Below, in pieces: positions 1-20,531 of a stretch of 64,000 bases of DNA (position 1 is its first letter; the number at the start of each line of letters is the position of its first letter). The DNA comes from an uncultured Holophagales bacterium (lineage in GTDB: Bacteria > Acidobacteriota > Thermoanaerobaculia > Multivoradales > UBA5704): contig CAWJGT010000009.1 of the NCBI GenBank assembly GCA_963842525.1, positions 32,001 through 96,000 of the forward strand, given 5' to 3'. Made by a program: the position numbers and the translations under genes. Under the pieces are notes generated by a model. The model did no database searches, had not been told where the DNA came from, and was given only the letters and a program-made list of their open reading frames with translations.

Positions 1-2309
1 CCTGGCGAACCTTCCTCTGATCGGCGGAAGGGATCGAGTCCTCGTCGAGGTCGAGGAGCCAGCGGAGTTTATCGATTAACTGGGCCTCGGCGGCGGGGTC
101 ATTGAACTCTTTATGTATGACCTCGAGCAGGTTCCAAGTGGAGATCGAGGTGGCCGGGTACTCGCTGCCCTTGACGCGCTCGTAGGCCGCCAGGGTCTGC
201 TCGTAGAGTGCCCGGGCACCGGAAAAATCCTTGAGATCACAGAGGACTGCGGCCAGGTTGTTCCTCGAACTCAAGGTGTCGGGGTGATCGTAACCCAACA
301 CGAGCTCGCGGATTTTCAGATTCTCTTCATGGAGTTCCCTCGCTCTGGTGAGATCACCGCAAACTCGGAGAGTTGCGGCGAAGTTGTTCCTCGAACTCAA
401 GGTCTCGGGGTGCTCGCGACCGAGCACGCACTCATAGATCTTCAGATTATCCTCGTGAAGCTTCTTCGCTCCGTCGAGATCACCCAGAGCGCGAAGAGCT
501 TCGGCCAAGTGGTTTCTTGAGCTCAAGGTGCTGGAGTCATCGCCCCCCAGTAAGCGGTCATTGATCATTAGGGAGAAGCTCACCGAAGTGTTTGGCGCCG
601 ATATGATCCCCGCGCTCCCGCGCAAACCAGCAACTCCAGTCGAACAGCCGGCCGGCGGCAGCGGATTCGAGCGTGTGTGCCCCAATCAACTCGGACGCGA
701 GTCTCACGCTCGGCTGCAACTTTTCACAGAGCTGCCAGTTTTCAAATGTGGGCCATGGATATGCTTTTGTCAGCGCTCGAACCACCCGTCCCGCCCAATC
801 CCGCCGGCCCTCCTCGCTCAAGGAATCTTTGACGACCTCCTGCGTCAAACGGTGGACTTTGAAAGCCTCGTCCGCCAAGCGCTCGACGAGCGAGTAGCGC
901 TCCAGAGGCTCGAGTAGCTCCAAGAAGACCAGCGGGGCTTCGTCAGCACCCTTCAGCCCTTGGGCCAGTAGCTCGCCGAGCTCCGAGCCGCCAAGGGTGA
1001 AGATCTCGATTGGAACGAAATCTGGTACCAGGAATGCAGCAGCGGTCAGCAGGTCGGTGGAGGCCTGCGAGGTCTCACGTACGGCAGCGAAGCTCAAACT
1101 CCAGGTCGTCGCGACAGTCTTGGGGTAGTCCGTGCTCGGCTTGCCTTTCGCGAGCAGCGCCACGCCCTCGCGCCGGTATTTGGCGAGGTATTCGCTAAAG
1201 CCACCTCCCACCGTCTCGATATACGCCGCCGCCTGCTCAAGAGCAAGCGGCAGATAGCCCAACTCAGAGGCCAGAGCGGCGGCCGCCTCGGCATCCGCAA
1301 TACCCGTTCTCTCTCTCAGGAACTCAACGGCGTCCTCGGGATCCAAGGTCTCTACCCGGAACGGTTCTCGGATGCCGACTTTGACGAAGGATTTTGCCCT
1401 CGAGGTTAGCAGGACCTTGCCGCCCGTCCGGATCGGCGGCAGAAAGCCGCGCAACAGGGCGGGATTGTCTGCGTTGTCGAAGACGAGCAACCAGGCACCC
1501 TCGCGGGAAAGCCAGGCCTTCACCGCCATGACTGCGGTCTCAAGATCGGCCCTGGTATCAACGAGCCTCAACTCGCGAGCGATAGACAGATAAGCCGACT
1601 GGATCTCCGGCACGGTTTCGGCCATGACCCATAGGACAAAGCGATAGTGCTCACCAAATCGGTGCGCGTACTCGATAGCCGTCTGGGTCTTGCCGATGCC
1701 GCCCAGCCCATAGATCGCGGCTTGGGCGAGTGCGGAGATTCCCTGCGTCTGTAGTTGCTGGTGGAGGCGCGAGAGGAGGTCCTTGCGGCCGGTGAAGTAT
1801 GGGTTGTGATGGGGAACGCCGATCATGGTTGGCCGGAAGGGCGGTCGATTCGAGGCGGAGGGGACTCGGCCAGCCTCTGGGAAAATGCCCTTGATGCCAC
1901 AGATCAGCCGATGCAGCTCGTCATGATCGTCGAGCCCGGCGCGGAAGTCGACCCAGGTCAGGCGCCTCAAGAAACGGGGCAACGCCTTCTCCTCGGGTTG
2001 GGACGCACCTGGCAGCAGGACCGGGATCACCCGGCGGCTCCTGTCCCGGACCCGCGTGTTGAGAGCGTCTCGCATCTCCTCGTTCTGCCACGGTCCGATA
2101 TCGCCGGGCCCGAGGCAAACCGCAACGGTCTGGCTTCGATCCAGGGCCTCTTCGAGCGCTTCCTGCCATGGCTCTCCTGGCACCAGGTGCCACTTGTCGA
2201 GGAAGGCTTTTAGCTTCCTGCGCTTGAGACGGCGGGCCAGCTCTTCCACGGCTGGCTTGTCCTGGCTGGCGTGGCTCAGGAAGACGTCGTAGGTCGCTTT
2301 GGAGGCCAT
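1..2309 (-). CDS. TIR - NB-ARC (STAND NTPase) - TPR protein, NLR-like; frameshift near 560-580; 3' end runs off the window
   Basis: N-terminal TIR (YDVFLSHAS...FLDKW...WQNEEM), Walker A GLGGIGKT, Walker B LLVFDNAD, GYLPLALEQAAAYI. After the ORF stop at 558, another minus frame continues with kinesin-light-chain-type TPRs (LGREHPETLSSRNN, LGYDHPDTLSSRNNLA) to position 1. ATG at 2309. Confidence 0.88.
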
Positions 2310-2681
2310 GGCAGATGGCTTTGAGGATACCACCCACTCTACGCGAAAGGACGAAAAGGACAGCAGGGACAGCAAGGAGTCGCCGAGTGCCCAAAAACGT
2401 GGTTCTGAGCACCGCTGTTTCCGGCCGGCCGGCGTCGCGGAAAAGCCCGTCCGGCTTGGATTTGGCCGCTCTCATCCGTCTTCCAGACCCCCTCTCCTCC
2501 CGCCGCAGCTCCGAAAACGAAACCAGTTCCGTTTTTTCCACAGGGGAAAAGGCCCGCCGGGATTGCGTTTCCGCGACTTTGGCGGGTCAAAAAAGGTGGT
2601 TCTAACCGGCGCAGAAAGGCAACCGCAGGAAGGTGGTTTGGACGGGGGCTGGCGGGGGGTGGGAGGGCGGGGTCGGGCGGT

Positions 2682-4900
2682 GGGCCGAGGCCCCTTGCAG
2701 GGGCCGGAGGGGGATCGGGCGGGGCGGGGTGGTCGAGATAAAACCCGGCAGGTTGGCGGAGTGCTCTTCGAAGGCATGGCTCCAGCGGCCTGCGGAGCCA
2801 ATCTGGCGGACCTTTTTGCGGGGGGAGGGGAGGCCCGGGTAGGTGCCCCCCCTGGTTAACATAGTGCTTCATTATGTTAAGGCGCAGCCCGTAGGCGGGG
2901 AGTGGCGCAGGGCGTTGGTCCGATAATGCAGTTCTTATCGGACGAACGCCCGGTGGGAGGGGGAGCCGCCCCCGCCGGAGCCAGGGGCGGGCAGCTCCCG
3001 GGCCGGAGGGTGGGGGAAATCAAAATGGGGTGGGCGGCCGGGGATTGGGTGGTCGCGCCGGAGGATCGAACGGCTGGCTTTCCACGGCCTCAGGCTCCGG
3101 GGCGGCCACCCGGCCTTGTTGAAACACGGCTGCCATCACCACGAAAAACACGCCGGAGAGAGGGTGGCGGGACGCTGCCGTCGCCGCGGCGGTGCCCGGC
3201 GCGTGGGGCGGCGGGCTTTGCGCCAGCGTCTTGTGGGGGCGCGCCTTCGCGGCAACTCCGGGGACGCGGGTGGGTGGCGGGAGGTTGCCAACGACACGGC
3301 TGGATGGATCTCACGCGGGTGGCGGGACGCTGCCGACACCGCGGCGGCTGCCCGGCGCGCGGGGTGGTGGGTTTTGCGCCAGCGCCTTTGTGGGGGCGCG
3401 CCCTCGCGGGAGCTCCGCATGGAGATGCTGCCCTCCCCCACCTTCGGATGGAACTCGAGCGGGTGGGAGCAGGTTGCGGAGCGCCAGCGGAGTCAAGCTG
3501 CGTGGGCAGGGGGAAATCGAAATGGGCGGGCGGCCGGGAGATTGGGTGGGCGCGCCGGAGGACCGGAGGACGGCTTTTCACGGCCGCAGGCTCTGGCGCG
3601 GCCACCCGGCCTTATGGGCTGAGGCCCCTTGAGGGACCGGAGGTGGATGGGTGGGGCGGGGTGATCGAAGTAAACCCGGCAGGTTGGCGCAGCGGTCTTC
3701 GAAGGCATGGCTCCATCGGCCAGCGGAGCCAATCTGCCGGACCTTGTCTGGTGGGTGGAGCGGGTCGCGCACTGTGCACGTGAGTGGTCGGCCTGGGTGG
3801 TGGTCACGTGCACTGTGCCGATCCCGCGCGCGGGGGAAATCAAAATGGGCGGGCGGCCGGGGAATGGGTGGGCGCACCGGAGGACCGGAGGACGGCAGTT
3901 CACGGCCGCAGGCTCCGGGGCGGCCACCCGGCCTTTTCAAAAGACGGCCGCCGTCACCGCCCACGGATGGAAGCTCGAGCGGGTGGGAGCAGGTTGCGGA
4001 GCGCCCCGCGCGGAGTCAAGCTGCGGGGCGGAAAGCTGAGGGGACCACGATGGCTCTACCGCCGATGGAGCGAGTACGTCCCCGCACGGAGCTGCATCGG
4101 CGGGGCACGGCGGCTCGCAAGCCCTCCCCATCAAATGGGTGGGCGGGTGTGGAATTGGGGTGTGCGTCCTGGAGGACCAGAGGCCGGCTGCTCACGGCCG
4201 CAGGCTCCAGGACGGACACCCCGGCCTTGCAGGATGGAGGCTCCGACTGCGAAGAGGCTGAGCGCAGAGAGGATGGGAGCAGTTCGGCGGAGCGCCCCGC
4301 GCGGAGCTGATCTGCGGGGCGGAAAGCTGGGAGGCCACGATGGCCCTACCGCCGATGGAGCGAGTACGTCCCCGCACGGAGCTGCATCGGCGGGGCACGG
4401 CGGCTCGCAGACCCTTCCCATCAAATGGGTGGGCGGGTGTGGAATTGGGTGGGCGCGCCGGAGGACCGGAGGCCGGCTTTCCACGGCCGCAGGCTTCGGG
4501 GCGGCCACCCGGCCTTTTCAAAAGACGGCCGCCGTCCCCGCCCGCCGATGGAACTCGCGCGGGTGGGTGGATGGCGTCGTCGTCCCCGCCCGGCTGCCTG
4601 GCGCGCGGGGTGGTGGCGTGTGCGTCAGCGAGCTGGTGGGGGCACGCCTTGCAGGGGGACTCCGAGGACGCGGGTGGGTGGCGGGGACGTTGCCGACCCT
4701 GCGGAGGGCTCGACCTCGCGCGGGTGGTCGGCGGGGCGCTGCCGTCCCCGCCCGGCTGCTTGGCGCGCGGGGTGGTGGCGATTGTGCCAACAGCCAGGTG
4801 GGGGCGCGCCTTCGACGGTGCTCCGAGGACGCGGGTGGTCGGCGGGGACGTTACCGTCGCCGCGGCGGGACGGACCTTGCGGGGGTGGCGGATGGGGTCG
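2682..4900 (+). repeat. Modular GC-rich repeat array with five copies of a ~65-nt hairpin
   Basis: Hairpin copies at 3047-3111, 3544-3607, 3866-3929, 4157-4222 and 4447-4510. ~290-bp tandem duplication (about 3985-4270 and 4275-4560). 2682-2815 resembles 3616-3745. Confidence 0.85.
2855..2943. other. Two adjacent dif/Xer-like palindromic sites
   Basis: TTAACATA-N9-TATGTTAA (2856-2880) contains the XerD-arm core TTATGTTAA. GTCCGATAA-N8-TTATCGGAC (2918-2943) has XerC-arm-like halves. Both are AT-rich islands in GC-rich DNA. Confidence 0.45.
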
Positions 4901-5602
4901 CCGTCCCCGCCGGCTGTTTGCCTTGCGTTATGTGACATTTCGTCAACATTCGAGCCGGTCCAGCTCCGCGGGTGGGGGGCTTCTTCTTTTTTCTTTCCTG
5001 CCCCTATCGGCCCGCTCGCCGGGGCTGTGCGTAGCTGTGGTGAATCCCGGCGAGGTGGTGGACGGTGGGCCGGGATTTCCAACGGGTGTGGGAAGGTCCG
5101 GAGGTGGAGGGGTGGCGGTCCGGAGCTTTCCATACCCGGTCAGCTTCCACAGCCCGGGAGGGGGAAAGCTTCAGCTACCACGCGCAGCTTCAAACCTGAG
5201 AGACGGCGGCCACCGCGCTGGATCTGCTGGTCGTCCAGGACCTGCCTGGCCTCCATGGGCTCGGCGGGGACTGCGTGCGGCTCTGCGCGGGCTCTGCCGG
5301 ACCTGCGTGCGGCTTTGCGTGGGGCTCCGCCGGAGCCGCGCGAAGGTCTGCGGGAGGCTCCCGCAGAGCCGCGCGGCTTGCCCGGGCCGAATCCTGCGGC
5401 CCCCACCCCCTTCCTTCCCCTTCGGATCAGCTCTCTCGCGAATGGTGCATATCAGGATTGAAACGAAACCTTGTCTACGGCTTTGCCTGGAGCCGTAATC
5501 TGTGCCATCCGGAAGGTGTCCACTCGCCGGAGGAATTTCTCTAAGTCCATGAAAACAGGAGGCTTATAGTTCGAACTCGGACCCTCTGGGGATACTCTTT
5601 AG

Positions 5603-5615
5603 AATCAACAACTTA
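5603..5615 (+). promoter_or_regulatory. IHF-consensus site
   Basis: AATCAACAACTTA matches WATCAANNNNTTR exactly and lies between the inverted repeat copies. Confidence 0.45.
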
Positions 5616-6148
5616 CGACGGTTTATGTCTCCCTCCGAAGCCCCGGCACACAATAGACAAACAATACAGATTTCAGAGGGTTCTCTGCTCCAGGTAGCCC
5701 TTGCGCCAGGGCGAAAGTAGCCGGTCGCTGAGCTGCTTGCGGCCGGTTCACGGAGCAGGAGCCGGCGGGTCATGAGCCACCTCGTTCCCTGGCAGCTAGC
5801 CACTCTGCGGAAGACTCTGGGTGGCTGGGATTTCGTTCCGCTCATTGCAATTCTCCATCCGCGAGAGAGCTGATGCGAAGGGGTGGAGAGGGGGGTGGGG
5901 GCCGCAGGATTTCGGCCGCGCAGAACCGCACACAGCTCGCGCAGGTCCCGCATGCGACTCCTGGGAGCCACATCCAGGTCTAGAGGCGTGGCCGGAAATC
6001 TGGGAAGGACCGCGAGCCGCAAGCCGTGCTCCGCGGCGCTGTAGAGGCTCTGGGAGGTTCGCTGCGGGGCCGTCTCGCCGCAGCTTGGCCCTCAGCAGCC
6101 GACGATTGTGCGATCAGGGAGAAGCCGGCTTAGGAGCGGCCGGCGGCG

Positions 6149-7017
6149 TCAGCTCGGCTCGTCGAGAACCTCGTTGACCGAAGCGGCAACGACTGCCTTC
6201 TCCAGCCAGCGCTCCAGCCGTTCTGGATCTGCCTCGGCCAGGATGCGCTCGCGGACGCCGTCCGGCACCGTAATGCCGCGGACCCGAAGCACCGACAGCA
6301 GGTTGCGCGCCGCCTCTTGGGTGCGCCCCTGGGTAAGCCCCTCAGCGACGTACTTTTTCGCGAAATCGCTCTGGTATTCGTAGCCCTTCATCGTCTCTAT
6401 CTCCCGGCGGGCCGCCTCATTCAAGAAATTGTACATGAGATCGTAATACAGCCTACCTTTATCATCGTCGAGCTTCAGGATCGCGGGCAGCACTGCGGCG
6501 GCAATCGCCGCTCCCCGTTCGGTCTCGCCGTGCGCCATCACGGAAAGCACACCGAGCTCCGGTCGGCGGATCGCGTCCTCAGTCTCCGTCACGACGGGAA
6601 CGGCGCTGCGGGGCAGCACAGACGGGCGCAGGATGAAGCCAGGGGCGCCGATCGCGATCGGTTCCGCACACCACTCGGCGACACGTGGCTCGGGCGCGAT
6701 GACCAAGATATCAGCCGGGCAATCGTGGATGGCGCGCGAGACGGTGAGATAGACGGGCCAGCTGAGGCGCTTTCTGGGGTCGATCGACACTGGACCTCGA
6801 CGATGATCACCCGGAAGGGGGTGCCGCCGTCGAGAAGGACGACTACGAGATCGGCGCGGTATTCGGCGGGCTGGGTCTCGGTGAAGTCGGTGGAGGCGAG
6901 GCGAGCTTCTTTGTAGGGCGGAAGCGAGACGCCCAGCACCTCCTCCAGGATCTCTGCGGCGAGCGACGGGCGGTTCTTGAACAGATCCACCAAGCTCTCG
7001 TGGGCCATCGAGGGCAT
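6149..7017 (-). CDS. Rpn/YhgA-like (PD-(D/E)XK) putative nuclease/transposase; frameshift near 6790
   Basis: MPSMAHESLVDLFKNRP...EYRADLVV...VIIVEVQ joins SIDPRKRLSWPVY...YEYQSDFAKKY...LRVRGI...LERWLEKA. This is the typical myxobacterial/actinobacterial Rpn-like architecture. Confidence 0.75.
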
Positions 7018-7513
7018 GACGGCGTTGTTTCTCCTTCCGATCCTTCTCTCAACGGGGTACTCAGATCGCTGAGACAGGTGCAAGATACCATCATTCTGCC
7101 TCCGAGGACACGGCGAAAGGGGTAGGTTTCGTTCCGTTGCGAGTATTCCGTCATCCGCGAGAGAGCTGATCCGAAGGGGGCGGAGGGGGGGCCGCAGAAT
7201 CCGGCCGCCCGAAGCCGCACGCAGGTCCGCACGCGGCTCGCGCAGGTCCGCACGCAAGTCCCGCAGTAGCTTTGGGGTGTCGCACGCAGGTCTGCACGCG
7301 AGTCCGCATGTGCCTCTCAGGCCCCACAGCAGCTCCGTTGATCGCCGGGATCATTCCCGACCGGGCCGGGTAGGGTCGCCAGCCACCCACCTCCTAAACT
7401 AAACCTAAACTTCTCAGGCCATGTCAATTTGTATTGTCATTCTGAATTACAAATATATTCCCGCGACGGGTGTGCGCTCCGAATGCTGCGGCCGGCGCCC
7501 CAGTGGGCTCCGA

Positions 7514-7939
7514 TCAGAAGATCTGGGTGTCGTGGAACGGATCGTACACGGGGACACCGAAGCCACGAAAGTGGTCGACGTTCCTGGTTGCGACGCCCAG
7601 GTCCTGAGACTTGGCGATCGCGAGAATCAACAGATCTCTCAGCTCGACCGTTCGCCCCCGGCGACGCGCTTCCGACTCCAAAGCGGCACAAATGAGTCCA
7701 GCAGCACGATCGAACGGCAGCACATCACAGTCTGACGCCAGAAGCTCAGCAAACCAGCCTTCCAGGAACTCTCGCTTCTTCCCTGCTGGAAGTCGCTGGA
7801 TTCCAGACGCGAGCTCATAGACTCCTACGGCTGGCAATTGGAGAGTCGAAAGCTGGCCGAGCCAGCGGATCACGCCAGCGTCCGGTTTCGGGCGCGCCGT
7901 TTCCGAGATGACGTTTGTATCGAGCAGGTAGTGGATCAT
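7514..7939 (-). CDS. vapC: VapC PIN-domain toxin
   Basis: YLLDTNVISE...D.LI.AIA....VATRNVDHF PIN motifs. Start overlaps the antitoxin stop. Confidence 0.92.
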   Translation of the reverse strand: MIHYLLDTNVISETARPKPDAGVIRWLGQLSTLQLPAVGVYELASGIQRLPAGKKREFLEGWFAELLASDCDVLPFDRAAGLICAALESEARRRGRTVELRDLLILAIAKSQDLGVATRNVDHFRGFGVPVYDPFHDTQIF

Positions 7940-8277
7940 CCACGCCCCGTTCGTCTTCGCGCGAAGGGTTCGGCTGGCACGAAATCGAGGCGCGCGGGCT
8001 CGAAGTCACTGACGCCCCCACCATGCCGCTGCTTCAAGGCTTCGACCCGCTGCAAGAAAGCGGCACCACCAGCCCCCGGCAGTTGCTGGTCGGCCGTTAG
8101 GCGCTCGTAGTCTTCGATTGCCAGTACGACGACGAGGTCTTTCCCGCGACTGTGAATGACCGTAGGTCCTTGCGCCGCCTCCCGCAGTACCTCCGACAGC
8201 TTGCTCTTGGCTTCGGCAACCCCCAACCGGCGTGTCCGCGGAGAGAGTGTTTGAATTCCCTTCTTCATGACCATCAT
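7936..8277 (-). CDS. Phd/YefM-family antitoxin
   Basis: GVAEAKSKLSEVL...GPTVIHSRGK...VVLAIEDYERL. Lies directly upstream of vapC. Confidence 0.88.
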   Translation of the reverse strand: MMVMKKGIQTLSPRTRRLGVAEAKSKLSEVLREAAQGPTVIHSRGKDLVVVLAIEDYERLTADQQLPGAGGAAFLQRVEALKQRHGGGVSDFEPARLDFVPAEPFARRRTGRG

Positions 8278-8299
8278 AGTCTACTCGATGGTCATCGAG
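8267..8299. promoter_or_regulatory. Probable TA autorepression operator
   Basis: ATGACCAT-N13-ATGGTCAT and an overlapping CTCGATG-GT-CATCGAG palindrome at the antitoxin start. Confidence 0.5.
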
Positions 8300-8699
8300 G
8301 TCGCAATGCCGCCCGATGACCAACCTTCCGATAGATGTACTTCACAGCGAGCGAGTGCAGATCTGTACGCAGCCCGCCGAGCCCCTGAAACTCAATCAAG
8401 GCCTCCTGGACGAACTGCCGATCGCTAGCCGGCTCCCGCGACCGCCGCGGGGATGGTAGCGCCAGCCCACCACGCGCAAGCAGCGTCCGCGGGACGACCA
8501 CCATCCGCGTACCCGGAGATCCGTGCAGGCACCCCCATTGGATTGTTGACGAAAAGACATCGGCCCTGGACGCCAGGCAGCCTGCGTGAGGATGACCACT
8601 CCCCCCGACCACCTCTCGCGGGCCAGCTCGAGGTGGCAAAGGCAGCCGCCCGGTTTCGTTTCCGGAAACGTTATCCGACTCCCGCGGCCTGGGCGGGGA

Positions 8700-9580
8700 C
8701 GGCAGTGCCCCGCCGACCACTCGCGCGAGGTCGATCCCACCGCGGCGACGGCAACGTCCCCGCCACCCATCCCGCGTCCTCGGAGCACCGCCGAAGGCGC
8801 GCCCCTACCTGACTGTTGACGCAATAGCCGCCACCCCGCGCGCCAAGCAGCCGGGCGGGGACGGCGGCGCCACCCGACCACCCGCGCAAGCTCCATCCGC
8901 GGGTGGGGACGGCAGCGTCTTTCGAAAAGGCCGGGTGGCCGCCCCGAAGCCTGCGGCCGTGAAAGGCCGTCCTCCGGTCCTCCGGCGCGCCCACCCATTC
9001 CCCGGCCGCCCACCCCATTTTGATTTCCCCCGCGCGCGGGATCGGCACAGTGCACGTGACCACCAGCCCGGCCGCCCACTCACGAGCACAGTGCGCGACC
9101 CGCTCCACCCGCGCGAGGTCAATCCGCGGCGGGGACGGCGACCGTCTTTGAAAAGGCCGGGTGGGCGCGCCGAAGCCTGCGGCCGTGAAAAGCCGGCCTC
9201 CGGTCCTCCGGCGCGCCCACCCAATTCCCCGGCCGCCCACCCATTTGATGGACAGGGCCTGCGAGCCGTCTTGCCCCGACAGAGCAGCTCCGGGTCGGCG
9301 AACCACCCCCGCCCGTCCGGTTCGCCGACTCTCCGCTCCTCTGTCGGCTCAGCGATCGTGGCCCCCGCAGCTTTCCGCCCCGCAGATCGGCTCCGCGCAA
9401 GGCGCTCCGCCGAACTGCTCCCACCCTCGCGAGGTCCCTCCTGTCGTGGTGATGGCAGCCGTGTATGAAATAAGGCCGGGTGGCCGCCCCAGAGCCTGCG
9501 GCCGTGAAAAGCCGGCCTCCGGTCCTCTGGCGCGCCCACCCAATCTCCGGCCGCCCGCCCATTTTAATCTCCCCCACCCG
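8700..9580 (-). repeat. Inverted paralog of the 3.0-4.9 kb array, with three more hairpin copies
   Basis: Hairpins at 8933-8996, 9159-9222 and 9478-9541. The reverse complement of ~8760-9110 aligns with 3752-3960 and then 4740-4870. Confidence 0.85.
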
Positions 9581-9699
9581 CGGGTCCCGACAGAAGTGCC
9601 AGCCGAACACTGCGTAGCTCCAGTGAACTGGAGAGATCCTGGCCGAAACGCCCGGCAGCCCTCCGGGCGGCCTCCCGCCGCCGGGCGTGTCGGCTCTCG

Positions 9700-11343
9700 T
9701 CACGGCGCCAGCACCCCGGCGTCCCAAACGGTCTCGCCGCCGACCAGGGTGAGCAGGCTCACGGTCCCCGGCACCGCCGGCGGTGGGATGGTGAAGATGT
9801 CCTGGGAAAGCACCGCCAGGTCTGCGAGGTAGCCAGGCTTGATCGAGCCTTTCTGCCACTCCTGGAACTCGGCCTTGGCCGAGCCGCGGGTATAGGCCGT
9901 CACCGCCTGCTCCATGGTCAGCGCCTCCTCGGGGCGGGACGGATGGACCACCGCGAAGAACAGGTCGACGAAAGGGTTGGGTTGCGGGCTGTCGGAGCCG
10001 AAGGCGAGGTCGACGCCCGCGTCCAGCAGCGAGCGGAGCGGCTGGGCTTCCGCGGCGCGAGCGGGTCCCAACGGGGCCTCGAGCTCGAGGGTCAGATGGG
10101 TGGGATTCTGCACCACGATCACCCCCAGACGCCGCGCTTTGTCGAGGTGCTCGGGTTGGATCATGTCCCCGTGCTCGATACGCGGCCGCAGGAGGCGCCA
10201 GACCAGGTCAGGCGCCGCGCGGTCGAGCTCGCCCAATGCCTTGTCGATGGCCCGGTCGCCGAACGTGTGGACGATGAGCTGGTCACGGACAGGCAGCCCG
10301 AAGAGGCTGCGCCGGACGAGCCGGGTCAGTTGGCTGTTGGTGGCGTTGAAGCGACCCCTGCCGGGATGATCGGCGTAAGGCTCGCGGAGCGCGCCGCTGC
10401 GCTCCACCGGAGTGCCGTCGAGCAGCCACTTGATCCCCGACGAGGTCAGCCGGTCCGCGAGGTCGAAATGCGCCGGCCGGCAGGACTCTTCGAGCTCCAT
10501 CGGCACACACATCGTGCGCAGCCGGACCTTGAGATCGGCGCCGGCGAGAATCCTCTCGCTGCGCTCCTTGATCAACCCGATCGTCATCTCCTGGAGGGAG
10601 GTCACTCCGACCTGGGCGACGAGTGCCGTCAGGGCCTCGAACTGGGCTCGCAGCTCCGCGTCGGAGACACGCGCACGAAACGGGCGGACCAGACGGAAGA
10701 ATCCGTATTCGTGGATGACTCCATTGACGATGTTGGTCCCGGGGAAGCGGTCGTAGGCGCCGCCAAAAGGGTTGGGCTGGTTGGGGGCGATGCCTCCCGC
10801 CTCCATCGCACGGGTGTTGATCACCGCGCTGTGGGACGACCAGGTGAGGAGGATCACCGGATTGTCGGGCGCCACGGGATCGATCGCCAGCCGGGTGGCG
10901 GCCGGGTCGAGAATCAGCGTCTCGCCGACGAACGCCAGGATCCACTCGCCCGGCTCCGCCACCGCCACCGCCTGCGCGACCTGGTCGAGAGCCTCCGCCA
11001 GGGTCGGACCCGGGCCGGGGATGTTGATGGACGGCAGCGTCAGGCGAGGGAATCCCACCCCCAGGTGGGCATGGGAATCGTTGAACCCCGGCACCACCAC
11101 ACGTCCGGCGAGATCGATCGATCGGGTTCCCGGACCGGCCAGAGCCAGCACCGGTCCGTTGTCGCCGACCGCGACGATCCGCGAGCCGCGGATCGCGACC
11201 GCCTGCGCCCAAGGCCGGCCGGAGTCGACAGTGAAGATCTTGCCGTGGTGAAGGATGATGTCGGCCGCAGGGATGGCGAGCGCGGGGCTGGCGAGAAGAA
11301 GCAGGAGGAAGGGAGCGAGCAAAACGAAGGACGTCCGGCGCAT
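9700..11343 (-). CDS. Secreted amidohydrolase family 3 (YtcJ-like)
   Basis: Signal peptide MRRTSFVLL...ALA; PGFNDSHAH, HTFGDRA, RIEHGD, FGSD, GSIKPGYLADLAVL. Confidence 0.9.
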   Translation of the reverse strand: MRRTSFVLLAPFLLLLLASPALAIPAADIILHHGKIFTVDSGRPWAQAVAIRGSRIVAVGDNGPVLALAGPGTRSIDLAGRVVVPGFNDSHAHLGVGFPRLTLPSINIPGPGPTLAEALDQVAQAVAVAEPGEWILAFVGETLILDPAATRLAIDPVAPDNPVILLTWSSHSAVINTRAMEAGGIAPNQPNPFGGAYDRFPGTNIVNGVIHEYGFFRLVRPFRARVSDAELRAQFEALTALVAQVGVTSLQEMTIGLIKERSERILAGADLKVRLRTMCVPMELEESCRPAHFDLADRLTSSGIKWLLDGTPVERSGALREPYADHPGRGRFNATNSQLTRLVRRSLFGLPVRDQLIVHTFGDRAIDKALGELDRAAPDLVWRLLRPRIEHGDMIQPEHLDKARRLGVIVVQNPTHLTLELEAPLGPARAAEAQPLRSLLDAGVDLAFGSDSPQPNPFVDLFFAVVHPSRPEEALTMEQAVTAYTRGSAKAEFQEWQKGSIKPGYLADLAVLSQDIFTIPPPAVPGTVSLLTLVGGETVWDAGVLAP

Positions 11344-11439
11344 GATGCGAGTCTCCTTTCTGTGGCCCTCAACCAGAAAGGTGCGCCTGCGAGCCTGAGC
11401 GGGCCGCCGGAAGAACGGCGAACCACTCACGCCCTCAGG

Positions 11440-11628
11440 AAGGACACCCAGATCCGTCCCATCCTGGAATCCCGCTGCAGTCCCTGCCACTTCGCAGGCG
11501 GCAAGATGTACCAGCAGCTCCCCTTCGACCGGCCGGAGACCATCCGCAAGCTCGGGGACAAGATGTTCACCCGCATCAAGGACCCGAAGGAGCAGGAGCT
11601 GCTGCGGGCCTTTCTGGCGGAACGGTAG
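11440..11628 (+). pseudogene. C-terminal remnant of a small c-type cytochrome-like protein
   Basis: QIRPILESRCSPCHFAGGKMY...LPFDRPETIRKLG contains CxxCH with strong GC3 codon bias. No start codon or signal peptide is evident. Confidence 0.55.
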
Positions 11629-11629
11629 C

Positions 11630-13484
11630 CTACCGCCGGAGCACCTCGATCAAGCTCCCCGCCTCGGCGGCGAGGTCCGAGCCGCCGGGAAAGAAACCGT
11701 TTTCCGTCGTCCACCAATCTGTATAGCGGCGGAGCTGACGCACGGTCGAATCGAGAGGGAAGCAGTCGCCGTTGGCGTGGTCTCTCACGCAGAGCTCCAT
11801 GTCTTCGAGGATCTCGGCCGCCGCGTCCGTGCGCCGGGGTTGGCCGGCCAGCGGCGCGAGCAGGTAGAGCTCGGCGAGCGAGCCGCGAGCCCAGAAATCG
11901 TTCGGCTTCTTGCCGTCGATCTCCGCCGCCGCCAGCGCGGCGTACCAGTGGCCTGGGTTGCGGATCTTTCCTTCGAGCACTGACTCCAGGGAAAGGTGCT
12001 GAACTCCGGTCCAGTGATGGGAGAGGTTGTGCTCGTACCCCCTCTTGTACCAGAGGCGGGAACGGTTGAGGGCGTCCTGCATCTTTTGCCGCCGTTCGTC
12101 GCTGGGGATTCGCGTGCCGCACGTGAAGTGCAGCTCGGCCAGGCGCTTTTCGGCGCTTCCCAGCAGCCCCAGGTTTTCTTCGAGCACTCCTCCTCGCGCG
12201 TGTCCGGCCGTATCGTTCAGGAAGTCTTCGAGTGCCTTGATACATCCTTGCAGGTGGCTCGCGACGTCATCGAACTGCGCCGGATCGGCGCAGGTGCTCG
12301 CCACGAGCGCGTCGGACCAGGCCTGCGCGATTTTCAGCGAGGACAGGACCGCTTCCAGCCGCACCTCCTTCAGGTGCTCCGCATAACCTTCGGGCAGGCG
12401 TACGTAGCCGACGAGGCTGGCCCAGTCGTGACCGGTCCGATGGCGATTCTCGTACAAGGCTGCACGCGCTTCATGGAGCGCCGTCCTGACGTCTCGGCCG
12501 GCGAGCAACGCGCCATAGAAGCGTTCGACCATGAGGTTGGATCCGGACACGGTGAGCGGGAGCTGTGAAGCCACGACGACAGGAAATCCCGAGACATGGA
12601 GCTGGTGCGCGATGCTCTTTTCCGGCGCGAGAGTATTGGTCAGGTTTGCCGCGTCGCACGTCGCCATCGTCACCACGACCGTCCGGCCGCACAGCGGAGC
12701 GAGGGCCTCCGTGAGGGTCTCCGGGGTGACCGCTTGCAGCTCGTTGTTCTCGTCGTGCAGCGCCATGCCGAAACGCTGCCGGTGGGCGCGCCCGACGGGA
12801 TAGCCGTGCGCCAGGATGTGCACGTGAGTGAAAGGTTTTTGCGTCGCAACGGAGTCCGCGCAGGCCTTCTGGAGCGAGGCGATGCCGGTCTGCTCCAGGA
12901 CGGTGAGCGCGTCGGTCGCCACTCCTTGCTGCAGCGGCATCCACGGCTTCAGGGCGGCGCGCAGGGCCTCCTCGTGTGCGCGATATGGCACGTCGACGCC
13001 GGCCCCCGAAGGACAGGCCCAGGCGAACAGGATCCGCGGCCTCGCCGGCCAGCGCACGGCGGTCTCCGCGAAGTCGTGGCGTACGCGGCGCGTGAGCCTC
13101 GACGACGGGCCGCTCCTCCCGGACCAGCAGCGGCTGGCCTGCGCCGTCGGTGACCGTCTCGAACGGGAGGGCAGCCAACTCGGCGGCATTGACGACGAGG
13201 TCCAACTGGAGCGGGGTCTCGCTGTCTTCGAGCTCCTGGAGGCTTCCGACGCCCAGGATGGAGGTGACGACCTCGCCGATCTCCTTCAGGGCGGCCGTGC
13301 GCGCTTCGCCTCCCGCCTGGTATCGCAGGCCGAGCATGTGATCGAGGAGGTCGACCTGATCGAGCGGCATCTTGAATTCGCGAACGGGGTGGGCGGCGGC
13401 GGCGATGAGATAGGGGTCGCCCTTGCGCAAGGCGCCGGTCTCGAGATCGTTGAAGCGATGGAACTCGACGAGCAGGGATTTCAT
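11630..13484 (-). CDS. CHAT (caspase-like) domain protein with C-terminal TPR-S/TRAF-binding-like helical domain; frameshift near 13100
   Basis: ELAALPFE, HVHILAHG (catalytic His), TMATCD (catalytic Cys), VVASQLP, FYGAL..G, DWASLV. C-terminal LGLLGSAEKR...FWARGSLAELYLL. Confidence 0.82.
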
Positions 13485-15880: not shown

Positions 15881-17257
15881 TTACAGACCCACCCCCGACC
15901 GTCGGATCAGCTCCGCCAGGCAGCGGCCGGACTCGCGGAGGATCTCTTCGAGGTCCAGCTCCGTGAGCCTGCCGTCTTCCACCAGGAGACGGCCGCCGAC
16001 GATCACGTGGCGGACGGCGGCGCGGGAGGCGCCGAAGGCCACCACGTCGTGCGGATCGGCCTGGGGAGAGGCCCACATTTCGGGGCGGTCAGTTGCCAGG
16101 ACGACGAGGTCGGCGCTTTTGCCAGGCTCGATCGTGCCGATCTCGTCGTCGAGGCCGAGGGCGCGGGCCCCTTCGCTGGTGGCGAGGCGCAGGGCGTCGA
16201 GGCCCGAGAAGGCTTCGGGGCCGTGCTTGAGCTTCTGGAGGAGGGCGGCGAGGCGCAGCTCGTGGAAGTTGTCCAGGTGGTTGCTGCAGGCGGCGCCGTC
16301 GCAGCCGATGCCGACCGGCACGCCGGCGCGGCGGATCGCGAGCAGGTCGGCGATGCCCGAGCCGAGCTTCAGGTTCGAGCTGGGGCAGTGGACGACGCTG
16401 AAGCGACCCTCCCGCTGACCCTGCACCCGTTCGAGGTGCTCGCGGGTGAGCCAGACGCCGTGGGCGAGGCGCAGGTCCGCGGCGAGCACGCCCTGGTCCG
16501 CGAAGTATTCGATCTCGTCCCGGCCGTCCTTGATCTCGCGGACCGCCTGGGTCTCGTCTTGCTGCTCGAGGGCGTGGGTGTGGATCGGCCAGCCGCGGCG
16601 GTGGGCGAGGTCGCGGATCCCCTTCCAGAGCGGATCGGAGCAGGTGAGGATGAAGCGCGGGTTCAGGACATAGCGCAGCCGGCCTTCGGCCGCGCCGTCG
16701 AATCCGTCGCCCATCTCCTCGGCCGTGGCCAGGACCGCGTCGGTCGGCTGGCGCATGGAAGCGGGGAGGGCGTCGCCGGAGTCCATCAGGCAGGGGCCCG
16801 CGAAGGCGCGCAGGCCGGAGTGCTCGATGGCCCGGAGCAGGCCGCGGGCCCCTGGTCCGATGCCGATGTCCTGAATCGTCGTGGTGCCGCTCAGGAGGCA
16901 TTCGGCGGCGCCGAGCAGGCTGCACCAGTATGCGCTCTCGTCGTCGTGGGCGGCTTCGAGCGGCCAGATCCGCTCGCGCAGCCAGGCGAGCAGCCGCCGG
17001 CCTTCGGCAAGGCCGCGGAAGAACGTCTGCCCCAGGTGGAGGTGCCCCTGCACGAGGCCGGGCAGGACGAGGCAGCCGGAGACGTCCAGAACCCGTGTCC
17101 CCGGTGGTGCTTCCGGCCGGCCGAGGGAGGCGATCCGGCCGTCCCGCACCAGGAGGTCGGCTCCCGGCAGGACCGTGGCGCCGGCGTCCAGGGTCAGGAC
17201 CGTGCCTCCGCGCAGGAGGAGCTGGGACGAGGCCGGAGGCGGTTCGGCGAAGATCAT
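15881..17257 (-). CDS. Amidohydrolase-family nucleoside/purine deaminase (MtaD/SsnA-like)
   Basis: PGLVQGHLH, HTHALE, LAHGVW, HCPSSNLKLGSG, GIGCDG..C.N, GTIEPGKSADLV. Confidence 0.88.
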   Translation of the reverse strand: MIFAEPPPASSQLLLRGGTVLTLDAGATVLPGADLLVRDGRIASLGRPEAPPGTRVLDVSGCLVLPGLVQGHLHLGQTFFRGLAEGRRLLAWLRERIWPLEAAHDDESAYWCSLLGAAECLLSGTTTIQDIGIGPGARGLLRAIEHSGLRAFAGPCLMDSGDALPASMRQPTDAVLATAEEMGDGFDGAAEGRLRYVLNPRFILTCSDPLWKGIRDLAHRRGWPIHTHALEQQDETQAVREIKDGRDEIEYFADQGVLAADLRLAHGVWLTREHLERVQGQREGRFSVVHCPSSNLKLGSGIADLLAIRRAGVPVGIGCDGAACSNHLDNFHELRLAALLQKLKHGPEAFSGLDALRLATSEGARALGLDDEIGTIEPGKSADLVVLATDRPEMWASPQADPHDVVAFGASRAAVRHVIVGGRLLVEDGRLTELDLEEILRESGRCLAELIRRSGVGL

Positions 17258-17350
17258 GGCTCTCCCGAAAGGTTTCGAGGCCGCGGAGCATCCTATATCG
17301 GCGACCTCTCGTTGACGCACATCCGTTGACCACCGTAGGGTAGAGCCGCT

Positions 17351-18044
17351 TTGAACGATCTGGAGCAGGAAGGCATTCTCGGGCTGGACAACATCCGTCT
17401 CGAGCTTCCCCATCGCGGGGGTGGGCAGCCGTACGCTCGCCGGGTCCATCGACTACTTCGTGCTGGCCGTCCTCCTCTTCATCTGGCTGATCCTCTGGGG
17501 GTTTCTGTTCGCCCGGCGCGGCACGTGGATGGTGGCCCTCCTCGTCTTCGGTCTGTTCCTGCTCGAATGGGGGTATTTCGCGTTCTCCGAGATCGCCACG
17601 GGCGGGCGGACGCTGGGCAAGATGGCGGTCAAGCTGCGCGTGGTCACGGCCGAAGGCGGGAGCCCGAGCACCGGCGCTCTCCTCGCCCGCAATCTGGTGC
17701 GCAGCCTGGACCTGGTGTTCGGCGTGCCGCTGATGGCGATCGATCCCCTGTCGCGGCGCCTCGGGGACCGGCTGGTCGGCACGCTCGTGGTCCACGACCG
17801 CAAGGTGGCGGCGGCACCGCTCATCGGGCGTGTGCCTCCGGGCTGGGGACCGCGCGAGCTGGCCGCGGTCGAATCCTTTCTGGTCCGGGCGCGGGAGCTG
17901 GAGGCCTCGGGACGCCTGTCGGAGATGGCGGACCACATCCTCGACCGTCTGCGGCGCGACGCTCCCGAGCTCCTGGCCGGCCTCGACACGCGGCGGCATC
18001 CGGTGGAGGTGATCCGCCGGGCCCTCCAGGTGGAGGAGGCCTGA
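17351..18044 (+). CDS. RDD family membrane protein; frameshift near 17415
   Basis: LELP/AGVGSR.LA..ID, GRTLGK...LRVV, RNLVR, RRLGD.LVGTLVV. Confidence 0.85.
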
Positions 18045-19027
18045 TGGACTATGCGCGCTTCATCCGGCTCCGGCGGCCGCTCTGGGAGCGCTTCGAGGCC
18101 CAGCTCGCGGCGGCGCGGCGCAGCCTCCGGCGGTTGAGCCATGCAGGCCTGGAGGAGATGGCGCTCTCCTATCGCCAGGTGCTGCACGATCACGCCCTGG
18201 CGGCCTCCCGCTATCCGGGCACGGCGGCGGCCGGACGGCTGCGCGCCCTCGCCGTCGAGGGGACGCGCCGCCTGGTGGTCGGCCGCACGGACGGCGCAGG
18301 TGGGCTCCGGGCCTTCTTCGGCCGCACGTTTCCGCGGGCCTTCAGGCGGCAGCTCGATCTGCTCGGGGTCACCGTGGCCCTCTTCGTGCTCGCGGCCCTG
18401 TGGGGACTCGCCATCACGGCGATGCGGCCGGGGCTGGGCATCCAGTTCCTCGGCCCGGGCGCTGTGGAGGGGTTGGAGGAGGGGCGGCTGTGGACGGAGT
18501 CGCTGGTGAGCACGGTGCCGCCGTCGCTCTCCTCGTCGGCGATCGCCAGGAACAACATCTCCGTGGCGCTGGGTGCGTGGAGCGGCGGGATCCTGGCCGG
18601 TATCGTGCCGCTCTACATCGTGCTGCTCAACGGCCTTCTCCTGGGCTCGGTCATCGGCCTGACGCTCCACTATTCGATGGCCGGCGAGCTGCTGGAGTTC
18701 GTCTCGGCGCACGGGCCGCTGGAGATGACGCTGATCCTGGTCACCGCGGCGGCGGGCCTCGGCATCGGCCGCGCGCTGGTCGCCGCCGGAGACCGCCCGC
18801 GATCGGCGGCCCTGCGCGAGGCTGCGCGGGACGCCCTGACGGTCCTGCTGGGTTGTCTCCCCTGGTTCGTCGTGCTGGCGCTGGTCGAGGTGCTCGTGTC
18901 GCCCTCGCCCGAGCTGCCGGCTGCCCTGAAACTCGCCGTCGGGATCTCGCTGGAAGCCCTCTTCCTTTCCCTGGCGGCTCTGCCCAGCCGTTCCTTGGAG
19001 GACCATGAGCGAACCGATCCAGCATGA
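18044..19027 (+). CDS. Stage II sporulation protein M (DUF95) family membrane protein
   Basis: MDYARFI...W..FE, NNISVAL, NGLLLG, HGPLE motifs. Coupled to the RDD gene. Confidence 0.87.
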   Translation: MDYARFIRLRRPLWERFEAQLAAARRSLRRLSHAGLEEMALSYRQVLHDHALAASRYPGTAAAGRLRALAVEGTRRLVVGRTDGAGGLRAFFGRTFPRAFRRQLDLLGVTVALFVLAALWGLAITAMRPGLGIQFLGPGAVEGLEEGRLWTESLVSTVPPSLSSSAIARNNISVALGAWSGGILAGIVPLYIVLLNGLLLGSVIGLTLHYSMAGELLEFVSAHGPLEMTLILVTAAAGLGIGRALVAAGDRPRSAALREAARDALTVLLGCLPWFVVLALVEVLVSPSPELPAALKLAVGISLEALFLSLAALPSRSLEDHERTDPA

Positions 19028-19910
19028 GGCGGCACGGACCACCCCGATGCCTTTCCGGATGCTCCTCGACGAGGCGATGCGCCGGACGCGCCGCCATATC
19101 CGCCGGATCTATCCCGCGGTGGCCGTGCCGGTCGCCCTGGCGGCCGTGGTCACCAACATCGTCCAGGTTTTCTGGTTCCAGCGCATCGTGGCCGAGACCG
19201 GAATGGAGCAGCTCAGCTTCTGGAGCCCCGAGAGCATCCTGATGACGCTCGTGAATCTCTTCGTGGTGATCGTCGGCACGACCGCCATGCAGAAAGCCGC
19301 TGTCGATGTGACCGCGGGCCGTCCGGTAGTCATGGGGGAGGCCTGGCGTTTCGCGGTCCGTCCGGTGGTCCTGGTCACGCTCCTCCTGCAGTTCCTGGCC
19401 GTCGCAGCCTCGGCGATTCTCTGCCTCGTGCCGGTCCTCTACGTCGCTCCTCTGCTCTCGTTCACGGCGCCGATCATGGTGGACGAGGGGGTCTTCGGGG
19501 GCCGCGCCCTGTCGCGCAGCGCCGAGCTGACCCGCTACAACCCCGAGCGGCGGTTCTTCGAGATGCCTCTGGTGAAGGTCCTCATCCTCCAGATCGTGGG
19601 GGTCGTGATCAGTTATGCAGTGATTGCGGTGGTGACTCTCCCCTTCCAGATCCCGATGTTGATCGGCATGGTCCGGCAGGCGATGGCCGGTCGGGAGCCC
19701 GACCCGTCGCAGATGGTGTCCTGGATGTGGCTCCAGGTGCCGTCTCAGTTCCTGCAGTCGCTGGTCACCCTCGCGGTCTCCCTCTACGTGTCCTTCGGGT
19801 TGGCCCTGCTTTTCTTCGATACGCGCAACCGCAAGGAGGGCACCGACCTGGCCGCGGAGATCCATGCCGTGTTCGGGCCGGGCGCACCGGCGGGGGAGCC
19901 GGCTCCCTGA
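19005..19910 (+). CDS. Integral membrane protein of the MoxR/DUF58 operon
   Basis: Multiple TM segments, ALSRSAEL, and FFDTRNRKEGTDL, typical of this operon slot. Confidence 0.75.
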   Translation: MSEPIQHEAARTTPMPFRMLLDEAMRRTRRHIRRIYPAVAVPVALAAVVTNIVQVFWFQRIVAETGMEQLSFWSPESILMTLVNLFVVIVGTTAMQKAAVDVTAGRPVVMGEAWRFAVRPVVLVTLLLQFLAVAASAILCLVPVLYVAPLLSFTAPIMVDEGVFGGRALSRSAELTRYNPERRFFEMPLVKVLILQIVGVVISYAVIAVVTLPFQIPMLIGMVRQAMAGREPDPSQMVSWMWLQVPSQFLQSLVTLAVSLYVSFGLALLFFDTRNRKEGTDLAAEIHAVFGPGAPAGEPAP

Positions 19911-20531
19911 TCCGCGCCGTGCCGGCCGACCACGCGCTCGTCGAGCGCCTGCTGGCGCAGACCGGGGTCGAGCGGGACCCGGTGCCGCCGCAGCCCTCGT
20001 ATCTGGCCGAGGTCTACCGGACGTTCCTGCGGGCGCTGATGGAGCTGGTCGAGCGTGGCAGCCGGGCTCTGCGCCTGGACCGGGACGTCCTGCTCTGGAT
20101 CGTCGTGGCTCTCGCGGTGCTTGTCCTGGCCCTGGTGGCTCGCGCGCTGCTGCCCCGTCTCCGCCGCCGGAGCCAGGAGGCTGGCGCGCCGGAGGTCGTC
20201 AGCCGTGACCTCCCGCCGGCAGATTGGGATGCCGCGGCCTGGCGTGCCGAGCTGGAGCGCTGCCTCGCCGAGGAGCGGATCCGTGACGCCTTGCGCGCCG
20301 CCTGGTGGTGGCTGGCCCGCTCGGTCGCCGGAGCCCAGGTGGCGCCGGACTGGACCAGCCGTGAGCCTCCTGGCGCGGACACCGCGGCGTGATCTGCGCC
20401 ATCTTCGCGACATTCTCAGGCGGCTCGACCTCCTCACCTACGGCGCGGACCGCCCCGGCCTCACCGATCTGCGGCACCTTTCCGAGGAGATCGAGCGGAT
20501 CGCGCTGCCGCCGCGGGGAGGCATCGCATGA
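19907..20531 (+). CDS. DUF4129-like membrane protein; frameshift near 20365
   Basis: TM helix, then ALRAAWW...PDWTSRE and LTYG. Conserved position in the operon. Confidence 0.65.

Follow-up and report, generated by a model that had tools for sequence, protein, structure and literature searches.

Several described systems share features with the region reported here. In integrons, the attC sites have outer boxes that read ..AAC at the 5' end and GTT.. at the 3' end, and the folded strand is opposite to the strand that codes for the cargo. XerS/difSL and XerH/difH are single-recombinase modules, and phage P1 carries cre-loxP near pac. BIME/REP elements of enterobacteria and BOX elements of pneumococci are modular, mosaic intergenic repeats, and miniature inverted-repeat transposable elements (MITEs) have terminal inverted repeats and target duplications. 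CsrB and RsmZ are multivalent sponge RNAs, and in type III toxin-antitoxin systems, short tandem RNA repeats (ToxI) lie directly upstream of an endoribonuclease toxin gene. GOLLD and ROOL are large structured RNAs of prophages and phages with unknown function, according to PMC12286853. We analyzed a stretch of 64,000 nucleotides from an uncultured Holophagales bacterium (contig CAWJGT010000009.1, positions 32,001 to 96,000), called the window below, and conclude that its eight hairpin repeats are tandem copies of one module of a long folded noncoding region at the end of a prophage.

This noncoding region is 1-3 kb in length and G-rich, folds on one strand, and is found, in three genera of one family, on temperate tailed phages and on derivatives that have no recombinase. 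Its parts occur in the following order: a gene for a Xer-type recombinase, an optional defense gene, a palindrome that we call site A, leader blocks, a multi-helix domain of ~190 nt, a G-tract linker with the 65-nt hairpin, modules with a GCCGTC motif, optional cargo, and a terminal module. The structured repeat is real and nonrandom. That it belongs to a mobile element's accessory end is ordinary; what is unusual is how large it is, how it folds, that it is linked to a recombinase, and that no described family matches it. In our preferred explanation, to which we give a probability of roughly 45%, the hairpin would be one domain of a long structured RNA encoded by the prophage, with a valency raised by tandem duplication. 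A first-pass annotation, made from the letters of the window, had proposed selection on a folded strand in an array that is not CRISPR. The first of these points was supported and the second was correct, but the larger structured region, the recombinase linkage, the prophage carriage, and the genome-specific amplification had been missed.

In the description that PMC12286853 gives of GOLLD and ROOL, these are, like the region studied here, large conserved multi-helix noncoding elements on prophages. In contrast to them, our region is very G-rich, has a domain that can be tandemly amplified, lies behind a recombinase gene rather than near tRNA islands, has no Rfam match, and is known here from DNA sequence alone. 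A multi-helix fold with covariation and carriage by a prophage, as is expected of large structured phage RNAs, were both found. With CsrB and RsmZ, the region shares repeated hairpin or loop motifs in variable copy number, and its units carry conserved GGA-rich unpaired bases (GGAGGAMCGGAGG); however, its units are ~100 nt, compared with about 10-20 nt, and are known only as DNA. Like BIME/REP and BOX elements, it consists of several short repeat families with hairpin-forming modules and a variable number of internal modules, but those elements are dispersed at many unrelated intergenic sites, whereas the present copies share one context and have sequence conserved across genera.

As in integrons, a tyrosine recombinase heads an array of imperfect palindromes with compensatory stem changes, cargo that includes toxin-antitoxin genes is interspersed, one strand folds, and a boundary site lies proximal to the recombinase. 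Unlike in integrons, cargo does not correspond one-to-one with hairpins, and most segments have no open reading frame (ORF); the recombinase is co-oriented with the array, and the coding-sense strand folds; and the region lies inside a prophage that integrates with a serine recombinase. A canonical integron was rejected, because the recombinase scores below the cut-off of the IntI model, the units have no attC boxes, and no ORF-attC cassettes are present. Units start with ATCAAAATGGG and end with CCACCCGGCCTT, and no attC-type boxes occur in 59 aligned units. Finally, a recombinase of Xer/Cre size beside a short palindrome (~10-bp arms, 6-bp spacer) resembles Cre-loxP, XerS/difSL, and XerH/difH, and the location of this pair beside packaging genes resembles that of cre-loxP near pac in P1. 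However, this likeness covers only site A, a putative site, and not the hairpins or the structured leader, and the spacer varies by locus.

Hairpin units, leader, and folded strand

All eight copies reported in the first-pass annotation (at 3047, 3544, 3866, 4157, and 4447 on the + strand and at 8933, 9159, and 9478 on the - strand) were recovered, and their alignment has a mean column identity of 82%. The variants described among them are also present. Copy 4157 has the stem GGGGTGTGCGTCCTGGAG / CTCCAGGACGGACACCCC, in which three positions are compensated; copy 9478 has CCAGAG / CTCTGG; and copy 3544 has CCGGAG / CTCTGG, which gives a G-T(U) pair. The inner sequence said to be nearly invariant is CACGGCCGCAGG in all copies but 3047, which has CACGGCCTCAGG, and AAATGG precedes every unit. 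The proposed length of ~65 nt proved too short. The core unit spans ~100 nt and reaches 130-140 nt with its flanks; the core begins with ATC(A)AAATGGG, continues with a G-tract linker and the hairpin, and ends with CCACCCGGCCTT. Beyond CCACCCGGCCTT, the copies split into a few flank classes; some units are followed by GGCCTTTTC, and a T run is present in some copies only. Units are spaced 226-500 nt apart, and the segments between them are not ORFs but repeat families themselves (D4-D8, D10, and D11). Units that code for protein were rejected, because the spacings are not multiples of 3 and copies differ by 1-nt indels. The features of the region in the window are as follows.

2385..2412, strand not assigned: site A palindrome, GAGTGCCCAAAA-ACGTGG-TTCTGAGCAC, 28 bp with ~10-bp inverted arms and a 6-bp spacer
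2385..2700, + strand: leader part 1, conserved blocks with an A/T palindrome, AAAACGAAACCAGTTCCGTTTT, at 2513-2537 (alignments A6 and A9, 22 sequences)
2832..3004, + strand: leader part 2, nested multi-helix domain with outer helix GGCCCGGG/CCCGGGCC and inner covarying hairpins at 2854-2882 and 2910-2951
3018..3118, + strand: hairpin unit 1 (first-unit subtype)
3171..3404, + strand: G-rich GCCGTC modules, two copies of family D4
3515..3614, + strand: hairpin unit 2, then a partial duplicate of a leader block at 3672-3745, 92% identical to 2741-2814
3838..3936, + strand: hairpin unit 3
4129..4229, + strand: hairpin unit 4, of the sub-lineage with three compensated stem pairs
4419..4517, + strand: hairpin unit 5
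4573..4900, + strand: G-rich GCCGTC modules with a 161-nt period (families D4 and D11)
5250..5470, + strand: terminal module of the + element, with short tandem GCGTGCGG repeats, a C-rich tract, and ..CTCTCGCGAATGG..GAAACGAAAC
5831..6000, - strand: terminal module, second copy of the - element (families D16 and D19)
7127..7320, - strand: terminal module, first copy of the - element (families D16 and D19)
8690..8916, - strand: G-rich GCCGTC modules of the - element (families I3, I6, and I12)
8926..9025, - strand: hairpin unit of the - array
9152..9250, - strand: hairpin unit of the - array
9470..9569, - strand: first hairpin unit of the - array (CCAGAG/CTCTGG variant)

The - array of the window has no leader, is cut off near 9600, and lies tail to tail with the + element.

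A profile built from the eight copies has 70 matches in the 9.95-Mb genome (E values of 1e-38 to 3e-4), all of which fall in 11 arrays of 3-11 units each on nine contigs. A covariance-model search of the genome, which the first-pass annotation had suggested, found 67 units. Arrays follow a conserved leader of 0.6-0.9 kb or a remnant of it, and downstream modules are also common to them. The first unit is a distinct subtype in every array, which makes the arrays paralogous copies of one entire element whose order is conserved; unit order is the same among paralogous loci, and copy number differs. Because contigs reach 2 Mb and the same element is present in other assemblies, an assembly artifact is unlikely.

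No described family accounts for these copies. Searches with Rfam 15, which includes GOLLD, ROOL, and Acido-type motifs, gave no match at the gathering threshold in the window and nine paralogous loci, and at E<=1, they gave only sub-threshold matches to hairpins of eukaryotic long noncoding RNAs and microRNAs. A known REP or MITE family, which the first-pass annotation had raised as a possible outcome, is likewise not indicated, given the lack of an Rfam match and the confinement of copies to one context. REP, BIME, and MITE copies are dispersed, whereas all 70 of the 70 matches lie in the 11 arrays, behind the leader or its remnant. CRISPR arrays consist of short (about 23-50 nt), identical repeats with unique spacers, usually with cas genes. 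The present units are at least ~100 nt, the segments between them are repeated, and the CRISPR repeats of this genome are unrelated, so that the arrays are, as had been stated, not CRISPR. Genuine CRISPR arrays with 37-nt and 32-nt repeats lie at C14:160286-168052, at C22:91357-91914, and from C3:~1741800 onward (C denotes contigs of this genome, and the window lies on C9); those on C3 are preceded by a long array of ~100-nt tandem repeats. A type III toxin-antitoxin system was rejected too, because units are spaced at 226-500 nt, the arrays are not followed by a conserved gene, and cargo varies by locus.

Evidence for the hairpin comes from an alignment of 59 full copies, in which 98.9% of the cells of a 19-pair consensus are paired. 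When partners are slid by 1-3 columns, pairing falls to 36-55%. Six pairs have compensatory changes on both sides. There are 28 doubly changed cells, compared with 4.5 +/- 1.8 in shuffled alignments, and none of 500 shuffles reaches 28. Because these changes trace to few sub-lineages of copies, they represent about four to six events, and not 28. Two pairs change from G-C to A-U among the copies, and their intermediate state is G-U in 26 copies and never A-C. Across all pairs, the ratio of G-U to A-C is 86:7 in the unit alignment (A4) and 145:5 in an alignment of leader plus unit (A8). Since G-U is far above A-C, the G-rich strand is the folded strand. For the left array, this is the + strand, whose sense is also that of the recombinase and of most internal cargo genes. 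The + strand is also the more stable one when folded, in 59 of 59 units and in 24 of 24 leader-plus-unit sequences; composition favors this strand as well, so that composition or mutation may account for some of the asymmetry. Together, the compensatory pairs and the strong asymmetry of G-U over A-C support the proposal of selection on a folded single strand.

G-tracts are conserved in the linker before each hairpin (GGG.GGGCGG..GGGG..GGGTGGG in the 59 aligned units). A canonical four-tract G-quadruplex pattern is present on the G-rich strand in 37 of 59 units, and on the other strand in none. The last linker G-tracts overlap the 5' arm of the stem, and a quadruplex and the hairpin would therefore compete.

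The fold extends beyond the hairpin. Alignment A8 comprises 24 sequences from three genera and metagenomes that cover the multi-helix domain (~190 nt) plus a unit, and was analyzed with RNAalifold and pair counts. Its consensus has 81 pairs, with 97.0% of cells paired, compared with 43-52% when slid. Twelve pairs are changed on both sides, with 88 double-change cells compared with 32.7 +/- 5.1 in shuffles, and the covariation score is 0.137 compared with 0.066; neither value is reached by any of 500 shuffles. Helices 2, 6, 7, and 8 carry the covariation, helix 8 being the one that encloses the unit; the covarying part comprises two inner hairpins besides this enclosing helix. At single pairs of the multi-helix domain, base identity is swapped among GC, AU, CG, and UA. 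We also considered the palindrome at 2854-2882 as a dif-like core site with two arms and rejected it, because its 'spacer' pairs and covaries, which makes it a hairpin.

Leader part 1, by contrast with this domain, is conserved mainly in sequence, because its consensus fold is weak (-10 kcal/mol). Site A is the exact left edge of the sequence common to loci. A regular expression for it has nine matches in this genome, all at array loci and one per locus, and eight in genome G010, all at leader loci and again one per locus; the control gave 0. The arms of site A covary in the 22-sequence alignment A9 (pairs 22/47 and 25/44), and the spacer differs between loci.

Downstream, the motif YGCCRTCNCC occurs 22 times in the window, with 7.9 +/- 3.1 expected, and 12 of these occurrences are inside arrays and co-oriented with them. 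A division of the arrays into cassettes at a GCCGTC-type motif was not robust. Homology between loci ends at the end of the terminal module, which is conserved across genera and is also present in the metagenome contigs L027, L116, and L121 (L denotes individual loci). A CRISPR-like interpretation of this module, which ends in ..ATTGAAAC, was rejected because the real CRISPR repeats of the genome differ. At six loci, a stretch of ~750 nt follows the terminal module (L009:6041-6840 (-) and five paralogues, alignment A7). It is 80-85% identical, its 3' ~100 nt are almost invariant, and it may be another structured noncoding element. It was rejected as a gene, because no ORF is conserved in it and its indels have lengths that are not divisible by three, and as the other prophage end, because it is confined to six array loci.

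Recombinase, prophage carriage, and relatives

Five of the arrays (on C1, C8, C20, and C23, and the + array of the window) are downstream of a co-oriented tyrosine recombinase gene of ~313 codons, whose paralogues are 58-87% identical (alignment A2). The gene that belongs to the window was located by tblastn at G000:C9:30951-31883 (+), and ends 117 nt before the window starts. Residues R183, K212, H276, R279, H302, and Y311 are invariant across four aligned paralogues, and we read this R-K-H-R-H-Y set as the probable catalytic residues. The protein scores 125-148 bits against XerC/XerD models, and its closest solved relative is XerD. Against the integron-integrase model TIGR02249, it scores 57-62 bits, with a cut-off of 265, and only its last ~45-60 residues match; a match to IntI4 in the PDB spans only 68 residues. 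No match above the TIGR02249 cut-off was found anywhere in the genome. The R-K-H-R-H-Y set and the inverted arms around a 6-bp spacer near the gene are the sequence features of Xer/Cre-type systems, and by its position and layout, site A is the probable target of this Xer-like recombinase.

Low-complexity repeats of CGGAC type follow the recombinase stop codon (L065:15905-15990). They are also retained just left of site A on C4, C19, C25, and C23, including at loci that have no recombinase gene. The genome also encodes a tyrosine recombinase of 325 amino acids in three identical copies (C3:356814-357623, C9:1900160-1900969, and C25:538791-539600), which is probably part of a repeated mobile element. 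It matches the integron-integrase model in two pieces (147 + 93 bits), without model positions 178-235.

Phage genes adjoin the recombinase. In a cluster that is divergent from it, a protein of 256 amino acids in the small-terminase position is followed, as identified by PHROG matches, by the large terminase, a Mu-type portal with MuF, a protease, the major head protein, an adaptor, and Neck1. The packaging end adjoins the recombinase at four loci. The full cluster is present on C1 and C9, and on C8 and C20, the contig ends within or just past the terminase gene. The cluster also lies beside the recombinase in relatives and in metagenome contigs.

A genome of the same genus (G002) has an empty site corresponding to the C1 locus, with the right flank within ~240 nt of a tRNA-like gene. 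Relative to it, the insertion on C1 is ~46.8 kb (C1:551,971-598,805) and is located beside the tRNA-like gene, which we read as Ala(GGC). The insertion contains the phage genes, the recombinase, a STAND gene, the leader, a four-unit array, and a terminal module. At its far end, a large serine recombinase adjoins the tRNA-like gene (L171:133-1644 (-), with the tRNA at L171:93-171). No direct repeat joins the two prophage ends, and the 3' end of the tRNA is not duplicated at the right end. The large serine recombinase at the tRNA end explains the missing flanking repeats, and the Xer-like enzyme is therefore probably not the integrase. A prophage bounded by two copies of site A was not found, as there is one site per locus in this genome and in G010. 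For C1, we rejected the idea that the leader and array are pre-existing host attachment DNA, because they lie inside the insertion relative to G002. When the recombinase-less C19 locus was tested for an empty site, neither of two relatives showed synteny. A serine recombinase similar to that on C1 is directly upstream of the Xer-like gene in L024 and L017.

Six arrays have no phage genes nearby, and five of these also have no recombinase; one of the six is at a contig end. These arrays look like derivatives or another carrier. At one recombinase-less locus, a fusion of an archaeo-eukaryotic primase (TOTE type) and a helicase abuts site A (L007:2566-4968 (+)), which hints at a different mobile carrier for the noncoding module.

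Close homologues of the recombinase (60-87% identity) were found only in Thermoanaerobaculia, Holophagales, or Acidobacteriota metagenome-assembled genomes, at 24 loci. Metagenomes added 60 further loci, and many of these contigs stop 0.3-1.5 kb past the gene. The hairpin unit follows the recombinase gene at 6 of the 24 genome loci, and at 26 of the 60 metagenome loci, at least one module is downstream in the same order. Among genomes, the unit is present in 8 of 36 others that belong to the family and in none of 24 that belong to other families within the order. The leader is present in 15 of 91 other family genomes: 4 of 5 in genus g1, 1 of 2 in g4, 10 of 11 in g6, and none in the rest. In a search of a viral contig collection, one contig matched, and it ends inside the leader. 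Relatives have 1-2 units per locus, also in a genome assembled into eight contigs, and the arrays of 3-11 units are therefore an amplification in this genome.

RNA, folded DNA, and other explanations

The first-pass annotation had offered structured noncoding RNAs or single-stranded DNA sites for recombination or nucleases. Both are still the leading explanations, and it is RNA data that would separate them. We favor an RNA because of the nested long-range helices, the base-swapping compensation, the invariant bases in internal loops, the G-U asymmetry, and the co-orientation with cargo; a nested multi-helix fold is typical of RNA. Most likely, the region would act as an RNA transcribed in the sense of the recombinase and most internal cargo genes, and the transcript would probably come from the prophage while it is carried by a lysogen. 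The bases in the internal loops of the hairpin are invariant, and the hairpin would be a module that a protein or another RNA recognizes. In this genome, 1-2 units per locus could have been raised to 3-11 by unequal recombination, and the amplified units might form a multivalent scaffold or sponge.

Several observations weigh against an RNA. The + strand is favored to fold by its G-rich composition alone, and mutational bias could have contributed to the excess of G-U. The unit hairpin is near-invariant between genera, and helices 10-12 are mostly unvaried or have one-sided changes; this invariance would be just as consistent with a sequence-specific DNA site. In 22 sequences, leader part 1 shows little consensus structure. 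A consensus scan found no sigma-70-like promoter, and terminator-like sites number 6, compared with 5.1 +/- 2.4 in shuffles. One cargo gene (on C8) and the STAND genes are oppositely oriented. Finally, the close and conserved association with a recombinase gene and with a palindromic site points to a role at the DNA level.

The last point leads to the main rival, in which hairpins of the G-rich strand would be substrates or accessory sites of the Xer-like recombinase, as are integron attC sites or the folded attP of CTX phage, and site A would play an attI-like role in a phage-borne platform for cargo exchange. It is the main rival because covariation cannot distinguish single-stranded DNA from RNA: according to PMC5737381, it detects structures of the former as readily as those of the latter. 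The directly upstream, co-oriented recombinase at 5 of 11 arrays and in relatives, and the location of site A at the exact boundary of common sequence, are consistent with this role. So is the variable cargo, both between recombinase and site A (STAND/TIR genes on C1, on C9, and in L030) and after arrays (a toxin-antitoxin pair, a small membrane ORF, and a WHH nuclease), with the same small-ORF cassette on C20 and C4, both times beside GCCGCCRTCCCC. We nonetheless judge it unlikely. The recombinase is not IntI (62 bits with TIGR02249, compared with 265) and has XerD as its best solved relative; the units have no AAC...GTT boxes; and the strand that folds is the one that codes for cargo, whereas in integrons the reverse holds. 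Moreover, terminal modules and not hairpins follow cargo genes, most inter-unit segments have no ORF, unit order is constant in paralogous loci, and relatives have only 1-2 units. A broader, IntI-independent variant, in which a Xer-type recombinase would use site A and the G-rich-strand hairpins (as DNA or through an RNA copied from it) to capture and shuffle defense and toxin genes on the prophage, as an integron-like system of different components, and G-tract modules might switch between quadruplex and stem, seems very improbable to us.

Other explanations dispense with both a free RNA and a recombination substrate. The amplification could be functionless, a satellite-like hitch-hiker at the accessory end of the prophage whose palindrome is kept by gene conversion. 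Arrays of 3-11 units occur only in this genome, with 1-2 units in relatives, copy number varies among paralogous loci, and the compensatory changes trace to few sub-lineages, all as this proposal expects. We find it rather improbable, since a single-copy unit with invariant loop bases is conserved across three genera and metagenomes, which argues for selection on the unit itself, even if extra copies are not selected. Quite improbable, too, are hairpins that act in cis within a long mRNA, as REP/BIME-like stabilizers, processing sites, or weak terminators or insulators. Strand-specific structure is co-oriented with cargo genes, GGCCTTTTC follows some units, one unit was called terminator-like, and the mosaic, modular build resembles BIME/BOX. 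However, most units have no ORF beside them, the hairpin is a long one whose internal loops are conserved, a T run is present in only some copies, terminator-like sites are no more common than in shuffles (6 compared with 5.1 +/- 2.4), and the copies occupy one genomic context, tied to an upstream domain conserved across genera. Base-swapping compensation and the excess of G-U over A-C would be unexpected if the palindromes were protein-binding sites in duplex DNA, such as a centromere-like array, a replication origin, or a phage packaging region, and long-range nested helices are hard to explain in a duplex. We hold out little prospect for such arrays, even though the region adjoins terminase genes, short repeats of roughly helical period flank it (GCGTGCGG in the terminal module and CGGAC after the recombinase stop), the oriented, recurrent GCCGTC motif looks iteron-like, and a primase-helicase gene abuts site A at one recombinase-less locus.

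If the region is an RNA, as we prefer, it would extend the very short list of large structured phage RNAs, with GOLLD and ROOL, by one from a soil phylum that has been little studied, and its tandemly amplifiable domain would provide a natural dosage series. If it is instead a site that functions at the level of DNA, it would be a second case, besides integrons, of a tyrosine recombinase that uses folded hairpins near defense cargo. Under either explanation, it identifies the accessory end in a family of prophages with STAND/TIR and toxin-antitoxin genes, and the element explains why short-read assemblies break just past the recombinase gene in these bacteria.

Cargo and neighboring genes

The following cargo genes are present in the window.

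558..2375, - strand: TIR + NB-ARC (STAND) gene between the recombinase gene and the leader (Pfam TIR_2, 3.7e-29; NB-ARC, 1.4e-09)
6149-6790 and 6589-7257, - strand: cargo ORFs with no family match
7514-7939 and 7936-8277, - strand: PIN toxin and Phd/YefM antitoxin, respectively (Pfam PIN, 3.4e-12; PhdYeFM_antitox, 2.3e-11)

The slot between the recombinase and site A holds different STAND-type genes on the opposite strand on C1, in the window, and in L030, and looks like a defense-gene hotspot of the prophage. These genes encode TIR+NB-ARC (window 558-2375), AAA_16+TPR (L001:1845-4550), and SEFIR/TIR plus NB-ARC+TPR (L030:10898-13293), all on the - strand. The ORFs at 6149-6790 and 6589-7257 may be one frameshifted gene. 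The PIN/Phd pair is co-oriented with the - array, and most internal cargo genes share the orientation of their array. Other cargo after or within arrays consists of ORFs without a family match, a small membrane ORF, and an eCIS-core/WHH nuclease. The small membrane ORF cassette is present at two loci (on C20 and C4), each time beside the GCCGCCRTCCCC motif. Terminal modules, rather than hairpin units, come after cargo genes.

In the related genome represented by L030, CRISPR arrays (16114-16379 and 20373-20835) and two Cas6-domain genes, with genes at 16668-19522 (-), lie 1-2 kb downstream of the leader and unit, in what looks like neighborhood only. Beyond the - array of the window are genes for an amidohydrolase (9700-11490 (-)) and for a CHAT + TPR-S protein of the caspase-like conflict-system type (11630-13189 (-)).

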